The notes beneath the pieces were generated by a model, which saw only the letters and a list, made by a program, of their open reading frames with translations, was not told the DNA's origin and did not search any database. A stretch of 64,000 nt of DNA from Octopus vulgaris (taxonomy: Eukaryota), in contig OX597819.1 in the NCBI GenBank assembly GCA_951406725.2, positions 125,550,001-125,614,000 on the forward strand. Direction: 5' to 3'. The translations under genes and the position numbers were made by a program. Within the stretch, counting starts at the first letter, position 1. The number at the start of each line of letters is the position of its first letter. Positions 58,691-60,619 of this stretch are shown here, piece after piece.

Positions 58691-59213
58691 GATATCTCTC
58701 ATACCGCGCGCGCGCATACACACACATGTAAATATATACACACATGTATATATTTGCTGCAAATCTGCTTTATCTTAATTTCCCAAGAATTACAGTTGGC
58801 CGATATTATTGGTGTTATCTTCTTTGATTATTATTGCTTTTAGATTTTAAACATCCCTGGAGGGAGTTTTTATCGAATAATTGAAGTAAGCCGACAGAAA
58901 TTTCTAAAAAATTCCGTTTATAAGTTGTTTATAAATTTAACCTTTAAAGGTATATTTTAATATGCTAGCCATTGATAGAAATTTTTTCGAAAAATTTTAT
59001 CCTATATTATATATATATAAGTAATACTAAGCAATTAAGGGTTTAGCAACGAATTGCCTCACCACACACCGAATTTAGAAATAGCAGTCAAAGAGTTATA
59101 GCTATTCTTTCTACTAAATGGGAGATCTCAGTAAAAACACAGCACTTGAAAGGCAAACACAGACAGGTAAGAGAGAATGAAATGACGGCAATCTATCATA
59201 CAATTTTAAGTCA

Positions 59214-59304
59214 CCTACGGACGTACGTTTCGAAATTAAGTTTTAGGAAAGCATAAGAATTAGATAATTATATCTTACCCAACTTCTTTTCTCATCAGCG
59301 TAGG
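59214..59304 (-). ncRNA. Type I hammerhead ribozyme, inverted copy
   Basis: Reverse complement of 59946-60036. Confidence 0.88.
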
Positions 59305-59945
59305 ACACTACAATTATGAATAATTGTATATTAAATTTCGAGATACTAGAAGGCATCATCTCAACTCAGTATCAGAGCGAGCTAAAAGCCGTTACCAGTA
59401 TCACCAAATTCAAAGTGTGAATGAAGGTTTGTGTCACCAACCCCTTCCCAACCGCGTGTAGCCAAGACAAGATGCTGTGGTCATTTACTGGGATGAAATA
59501 TGGTTATCAGTAACAATATAGGGTGAAATTAATTAATTTGGAATAATTATTAATTACACCAAGTAGATTTCGGCATGTAAAAGCCTCATTCGAGGAAAAT
59601 ATAAGTAATACTAAGTAATTAAGGGTTTAGCAACGAATTGCCTCACCACACACCGAATTTAGAAATAGCAGTCAAAGAGTTATAGCTATTCTTTCTACTA
59701 AAAGGGAGATCTCAGTAAAAACACAGCACTTGAAAGGCAAACACCTAACCATATTTCATCCCAGTAAATGACCACAGCATCTTGTCTTGGCTACACGCGG
59801 GTGGGAAGGGGCTGGTGACAAACTTTCATTCACACTTTGAATTTGGTGATACTGGTAACGGCTTTTAGCTCGCTCTGATACTGAGTTGAGATGATGCCTT
59901 CTAGTATCTCGAAATTTAATATACAATTATTCATAATTGTAGTGT

Positions 59946-60036
59946 CCTACGCTGATGAGAAAAGAAGTTGGGTAAGATATAATTATCTAATTCTTATGCT
60001 TTCCTAAAACTTAATTTCGAAACGTACGTCCGTAGG
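59946..60036 (+). ncRNA. Type I hammerhead ribozyme
   Basis: cctacg CTGATGA gaaa...tttc GAAA cgtacg TC cgtagg; predicted cleavage after C60030. Confidence 0.88.
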
Positions 60037-60619
60037 TGACTTAAAATTGTATGATAGATTGCCGTCATTTCATTCTCTCTTACCTGTCTGTGTTTGCCTT
60101 TCAAGTGCTGTGTTTTTACTGAGATCTCCCTTTTAGTAGAAAGAATAGCTATAACTCTTTGACTGCTATTTCTAAATTCGGTGTGTGGTGAGGCAATTCG
60201 TTGCTAAACCCTTAATTGCTTAGTATTACTTAAATTTTCCTCGAATGAGGCTTTTACATGCCGAAATCTACTTGGTGTAATTAATAATTATTCCAAATTA
60301 ATTAATTTCACCCTATATTGTTACTGATAACCATATTTCATCCCAGTAAATGACCACAGCATCTTGTCTTGGCTACACGCGGGTGGGAAGGGGCTGGTGA
60401 CACAAACTTTCATTCACACTTTGAATTTGGTATATATATATATATATATATATATATGATCTAACTTCTAGACTTCTTTAATTGGAACATTCCAAATAGT
60501 AGTAATCTGTTGAATATATGAAAAATTTGTGAATACGAATGCATTGTCTGAAAAGGTATTGATAATGCTTTCCGTATTGAAGAAAGACAACTGTACCTCC
60601 TGGTGGTTTAAAGGAGAAA

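Follow-up and report, generated by a model that had tools for sequence, protein, structure and literature searches.

The inverted repeat described here is best explained as one insertion of a young, non-coding hammerhead family that is likely a non-autonomous Penelope-like element (PLE), probably copied in trans by the reverse transcriptase (RT) and GIY-YIG nuclease of a Hydra-clade PLE, and likely from an RNA of more than unit length that need not have been circular. Taken as a whole, we consider this explanation probable. The size of the family, its (TA)n targets, the two fixed 3' ends, the random 5' truncation and the conserved hammerhead fold are directly supported by the data, as are the head-to-head inversions, the use of different sites by the two arms and the single haplotype of an insertion.

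All positions are those of the window, that is, the whole 64-kb stretch of DNA that was analysed. The reference monomer, U, comprises the 584 nt from 59746 to 60329, and the locus is made up of the following features.

59018-59744, sense on the minus strand: left arm, 727 nt, 1.25 units (U345>584>1>487), with its 3' end at site A and leading into (TA)n
59746-60431, sense on the plus strand: right arm, 686 nt, 1.17 units (U1>584>102), with an atypical 3' end
59003-59019: left remnant of the target, a short (TA)n of about six TA units
60431-60457: right part of the target, (TA)13.5
59946-60036, plus strand: type I hammerhead of the right arm, helix I 59946-51/60031-36, predicted cut after C60030
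59304-59214, minus strand: type I hammerhead of the left arm, identical to the right-arm copy, predicted cut after C59220
60219-60237 (U474-492, mode U481), plus strand: site A, the preferred 3' end (55 of 98 arms), putative RT start
60315-60337 (U570-584/1-8), plus strand: site B, the second preferred 3' end (29 of 98 arms), putative RT start

The arms are joined 5'-to-5' through one extra base, 59745, and run outward into (TA)n. They are 99% complementary, differing at 5 of 580 positions, and repeat with a period of 584, which shortens to 582 where the first right-arm copy lacks 2 nt. Coordinates, period and complementarity thus agree with the initial annotation, which had described an inverted pair of arms, about 1.25 and 1.17 units long, with a monomer of 584 nt. 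The unit has a GC content of 0.36 and, with a longest stop-free frame of only 69 aa, is non-coding as had been claimed; the claimed (TA)n setting is also found, amply on the right and merely as about six TA units on the left. The atypical 3' end of the right arm belongs to a class shared with 14 of the 98 sampled arms. To the left, 58324-58695 is occupied by a tandem pair of 184-bp repeats (92%); this repeat is met again in many sampled loci and may be SINE-like. The window also holds two arrangements of two ORFs that by eye are LINE-like, with endonuclease and RT, one of 487+1140 aa at 43305-48184 (plus strand) and the other of 419+949 aa at 16099-20209 (minus strand).

Both hammerheads consist of stem I CCTACG/CGTAGG, CTGATGA, GAAA, GTC and the palindromic ACGTACGT, and the predicted motif has the type I core (CUGANGA, GAAA, UH) together with helices I-III. 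A pattern scan of both strands of the whole 64-kb window returned exactly these two, one per arm, which bears out the claim of a complete type I hammerhead in each arm. The 60 nt between CUGAUGA and GAAA, absent from the initial annotation, constitute an extended helix II. The search with Rfam models that had been proposed as a check gave 16 matches in 56000-64000 at E<=5 and no hammerhead among them, probably because of the 60-nt insert. Helix III can be drawn as 3 bp with a 2-nt loop or as an 8-bp intermolecular duplex (-9.8 kcal/mol); the latter, a palindrome duplex between two copies, would fit cleavage as a dimer, as hammerheads are proposed to do in PMC4209133. The computed monomer fold has a stable helix I and a partial helix II (about 0.3), and its core is for the most part mispaired (P about 0.83). 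Among 26 distinct hammerhead variants, hand-picked from 69, pairing is kept in 97.5% of cells; three pairs of helix II are changed on both sides (18 cells; 0/500 shuffles), changes that represent few independent events on the tree.

One lineage of the family carries a substituted core. The CCGAUGA (U4C) pattern has 379 matches genome-wide versus 404 for the CUGAUGA pattern, and the U4C copies form a single clade of 18 among 85 tips (branch support left aside). The mean number of hammerheads per arm is 1.62 in the U4C lineage versus 1.14, and on C1-C3 arms with two or more hammerheads are more frequent in it (19/52 versus 10/85, p=0.001), a comparison confounded by the one origin of the lineage. 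The youngest Hydra family has a CCGA hammerhead core too. According to PMC3088659, U4C 'considerably decreases activity in vitro' and still allows viroid infectivity; because infectivity persisted, U4C is not a null. Cleavage by the hammerhead of the family would be weak and would probably take place in a dimer or with the aid of a protein, and insertion may not depend on the motif; hammerhead mutants are described in PMC11167929 as having no effect on insertion.

A 19-nt query, the 3' half of the hammerhead, gave 1,085 exact matches genome-wide and its reversed control none, hence the unit belongs to a multicopy family rather than being single-copy. The sample comprises every one of the 70 loci to which the first 100 listed matches belong, covering the whole of C1 and the first 39 Mb of C2; it is conditional on presence of the motif, and 98 arms of at least 40 nt were mapped in it. 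The sampled copies are 76 to 99% identical to U and fall into several subfamilies. In none of the 70 loci is an ORF attached to the U copies, and the case that the unit is always attached to a Penelope ORF, named in the initial annotation as one that would overturn it, is thereby excluded for the sample. The conclusion that U represents a young, multicopy, non-coding hammerhead retroelement family of many hundreds of copies is supported by these data. Two further non-coding families (L181-L210 and L265-L294) share the 3' half of U at about 70% identity, and in both of them the inverted arms stop some 80-100 nt before the point where the main arm ends. The former has a 583-nt unit, about 70% identical to U over 226 aligned columns, with a hammerhead of its own (helix I CTTGAG/CTCAAG). 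At L203-L208 (C9 96.03-96.05 Mb) a 1.95-kb tandem array contains a captured, truncated sister-family copy. In the literature on Penelope, retrozymes and cephalopods we found no published account of the U family, one that repeat databases or supplements may hold; the present data add a group, apparently not described before, of at least three non-coding families of PLE type that are related to one another.

The ends of the arms bear on the mode of insertion. The 3' ends of 84 of the 98 arms lie at site A or B, whose windows, drawn after a first look at the ends, make up 7% of the unit; four more lie 1 nt outside, and 40 arms end exactly at U481. The two sites are about 103 nt apart, and a TA-type repeat adjoins 87 of the 98 arms. 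By contrast, the 5' ends are uniform around the unit (KS p=0.95) with no region avoided, and only one of 98 falls within 10 nt of the cut site versus 3.5 expected. Variable, permuted breakpoints, as the initial annotation had foreseen, are thus found for the 5' ends and not for the 3' ends. Permuted 5' ends together with fixed 3' ends are typical of reverse transcription that is target-primed and starts at internal sites. Inversions occur in 29 of the 70 loci, more than one unit in 33 and more than two units in five. It is in the inverted loci that the sites follow a rule: where both ends are at fixed sites A is paired with B in 18 of 18 cases (p=6e-7), while the remaining 11 have an atypical end. 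Of the 16 inverted loci in a second, array-selected set scored by eye, 12 combine A with B (three of them complex), three have an atypical end and one, L240, is B/B, which counts against the preferred explanation.

The same geometry is found in an element that encodes its own proteins. In a very young ORF-bearing Hydra-type PLE of this genome, a proximal end is combined with a distal one in all 19 inverted insertions that could be scored (20 sampled; one proximal end atypical). Therefore, the arrangement is a geometry of PLE insertion for which a circle is not needed. In PMC8557442 partial tandems, an inverted 5'-truncated copy and an often one-sided tail are described as typical of PLEs, and it is also reported there that Hydra targets (TA)n and that non-autonomous PLEs occur in head-to-tail arrangement; PMC11167929 describes two internal RT starts with extension of both strands, the choice of start in vitro not differing between strands. 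The A-B spacing of 103 nt exceeds the published 30-40-bp tail, and this counts against a PLE reading. The presence of A/B pairing both in the U family and in an intact Hydra element makes the question of the inverted insertions directly testable.

Intact autonomous PLEs are present in the genome, with open frames of 784, 980 and 717 aa in young families. Five families were checked, two Neptune-like and three Hydra-like, among more that the genome holds, and none has nucleotide homology to U, which counts against the preferred explanation. Matches of 64-72% beside PLEs were considered as a parent and rejected, as they belong to the sister non-coding families, inserted within the (TA)n tracts that also hold the PLEs. 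The two Neptune-like families (L091-L120 and L259-L263), young and TA-targeting, have 784-aa frames and 72% mutual identity, the first with two 3' ends about 30 nt apart. One Hydra-type PLE (L251-L253, L264) has an intact 980-aa frame with RWK, DKT and CxCX5C motifs, a long Asn-rich linker and a 1.6-kb 3' region with a long-helix-II hammerhead at the very end; Pfam recognised RT and GIY-YIG in the Neptune-like protein only and missed this one. Another (L295-L344, e.g. L314 and L329), the element with the combined proximal and distal ends described above, is extremely young, with open frames to 717 aa, DKT and CxCX5C motifs and a hammerhead whose core reads CCGAAGA; about 70 nt separate its two 3' ends, and all 150 of the nuclease matches listed for it are 100% identical. 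Few molluscan Hydra families are reported in PMC8557442. The helix II region measures 60 nt in U, 60 and 53 in two Hydra-like PLEs and 12 in Neptune, and the helix III insert 6 nt in U and the same two Hydra-like PLEs and 2 nt in the Neptune PLE. This similar hammerhead shape links the two Hydra-like families to U, and we infer that the helper of U is a Hydra-clade PLE, a reading against which the helix II of the youngest Hydra family counts, being 31 nt long unlike that of U.

We propose the following model for the insertion. The PLE protein would nick both strands of the (TA)n tract, and each nick would prime cDNA at one internal site of the RNA, A or B. Each cDNA would stop at a random point and, when both survive, they would be joined 5'-to-5', resulting in an inverted structure such as that of the locus. 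Tandem copies would be transcribed through, and arrays above about two units would be mostly the outcome of later growth by duplication at the DNA level.

The alternative that survives best, possible but in our view doubtful, keeps the same family and PLE helper and changes the template: tandem transcripts would self-cleave as dimers and be ligated to 584-nt circles, on which the RT would start at A or B and run around. A circular template has already been put forward in print (PMC4209133; PMC7229834), and coral, mussel and axolotl retrozymes form circles according to PMC7229834. The two-sided changes in helix II, few as the independent events are, speak for it, and so does the seamless passage of the arms across the cut site, where the 5' ends do not pile up. 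The unit folds more strongly than its shuffles (z -6.05, and -7.3 as a circle; four controls gave 0.0, -0.3, -0.5 and -3.6), and does so on the sense strand only (-7.3 versus -2.3 for the antisense). This computed fold and the unit length kept at 583 nt in a sister of about 70% identity suit a processed unit-length RNA, and would leave a circle possible. Against it, the fixed 3' ends and inversions are accounted for by PLE chemistry alone. The initial annotation had taken over-unit, tandem and inverted copies as evidence of a circle, an argument that lapses with the same anatomy in an ORF-bearing PLE of this genome. Moreover, a lineage with the weakened U4C core kept spreading widely, and therefore a circle is not required; the core of the folded monomer is mostly mispaired and its helix II partial; and in 10.64898/2026.07.22.740005 just one of nine predicted Xenopus retrozyme dimers is reported as cleaved in vitro. 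Head-to-tail joints of 583-585 are present in three of four presumed-RNA contig sets and would be equally expected from tandem genomic copies. As to the label 'viroid-like', which implies RNA-to-RNA replication, it found no support in any analysis here: the hammerhead is present on one polarity only and the antisense fold is weak. A new class of viroid-like RNA is not established.

The form of the template was also approached through the variants of multi-unit copies. Within an insertion, a single haplotype is common to all units and to the two arms (58 locus-wide variants), hence there was one template lineage per insertion; a monomer circle also predicts one-haplotype insertions, which counts against a linear multimer. 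Substitutions shared by a subset of units account for 32 of 120 columns in 24 multi-unit loci, with a period of 2, 3 or 4 that would not be expected from a freshly copied monomer circle. With such higher-order structure the long arrays are not clean rolling-circle products; either they were enlarged by duplication after insertion or their templates were multimeric. The array at L211 (G000 C8 3133797-3139511), of about 10 units, has period-2 and period-4 higher-order structure, and one of its variant blocks recurs in L228 on a different background. No ordered unit pattern is common to separate arrays, as a monomer circle predicts likewise, so that a heterogeneous master transcript is not shown either. 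In 117 within-locus variable columns from 21 U4C loci, recurrence in at least two loci is limited to homopolymer indels, end artefacts and five single sites. Divergence is 0.91% within arms, 0.90% between arms and 0.7% (median) to the nearest other locus, similar values that do not discriminate by themselves, and the shared-allele fractions are 0.16 and 0.23 versus a null of 0.14. A-to-I editing of the template was considered and rejected, sense A>G not being in excess (7 versus 14 locus-wide, p=0.51; 15 versus 23 in subsets); one of 18 tests gave p=0.017.

A more specific form of cephalopod retrozyme, which we regard as unlikely, would have a 584-nt circle to which a dimeric Hydra PLE protein binds at two fixed sites, the target strands being primed one from each on the same RNA complex. 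If true, two-ended priming would have left the strict A/B pairing as its trace in the genome, and the U4C lineage, with its longer arms and single origin, would serve as a natural experiment on the control of insertion length by cleavage. It is very improbable that U is the pLTR of a missed ORF-bearing PLE and its copies the 5'-truncated ends of that element. The genome searches score best candidates only and several further PLE families exist; nevertheless, 33 of 70 unbiased loci pass from one unit straight into another, up to about 10 at L211, with no ORF between, and the PLE protein matches near U copies are separated by (TA)n or come from other families. An assembly artefact, or a plain satellite spread by DNA recombination, can practically be dismissed in view of hundreds of dispersed loci, fixed 3' ends, random 5' truncation, locus-private variants and arms that differ at 5 of 580 positions, even though assembly is difficult for inverted repeats within (TA)n, the identical internal units of arrays L231 and L244 could reflect polishing and DNA-level expansion does occur.

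The family offers a compact, abundant and very young substrate for learning what hammerheads do for PLEs and how inversions with one-sided tails arise; its paired wild-type and U4C lineages make the question of the role of the hammerhead directly testable.

Among known systems, U resembles the animal non-LTR retrozymes as described in PMC7229834 and 10.64898/2026.07.22.740005 in its non-coding tandem unit, one type I hammerhead, GC of 36%, short palindromic helix III and coexistence with autonomous PLEs. Its length is within the 51-972 bp range of 10.64898/2026.07.22.740005 and above the 170-400 nt of the circles experimentally shown for retrozymes. It departs from them in the 60-nt helix II region, in its mostly dispersed insertions of 1-2 units with inversions, and in that no homologous pLTR was found. 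With the non-autonomous Chlamys elements of PMC8557442, including MRC1, it has in common pLTR-like partial tandems, head-to-tail multicopy arrangement, microsatellite targets and 5' truncation, but U has a hammerhead, an animal host and no detectable 3' similarity to a partner. The Hydra-clade PLEs (those in PMC8557442 and the three families here) share with U the (TA)n target, a canonical hammerhead, two 3' ends and inverted insertions with one arm at each; unlike U they encode RT and GIY-YIG nuclease, and they have no nucleotide homology to it. The Poseidon element PAc of Anolis, as presented in PMC11167929, likewise has two RT starts downstream of a hammerhead, an AT-rich target and extension of both strands, although its start sites are adjacent (30-40-bp tail) and used in vitro without strand preference, whereas those of U are 103 nt apart and strictly paired. 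Among the traits of non-autonomous PLEs, U has partial tandems, an inverted 5'-truncated copy, a tail at one end, a microsatellite or AT-rich target (87 of 98 arms) and intact autonomous PLEs in the same genome, and its copies lack the RT and GIY-YIG ORF of an autonomous one. Among those of non-LTR retrozymes, it has tandem non-coding hammerhead units (at least two consecutive, in arrays to about 10), no LTR, no ORF, a GC content below 50% and a monomer highly self-paired in the computed fold, and in this genomic sense the initial annotation of a retrozyme-type family was right. Judged by its sequence, the U family would work like a non-autonomous PLE and at the same time fall under the genomic definition of a non-LTR retrozyme, two categories that are argued in 10.64898/2026.07.22.740005 to be the same thing.
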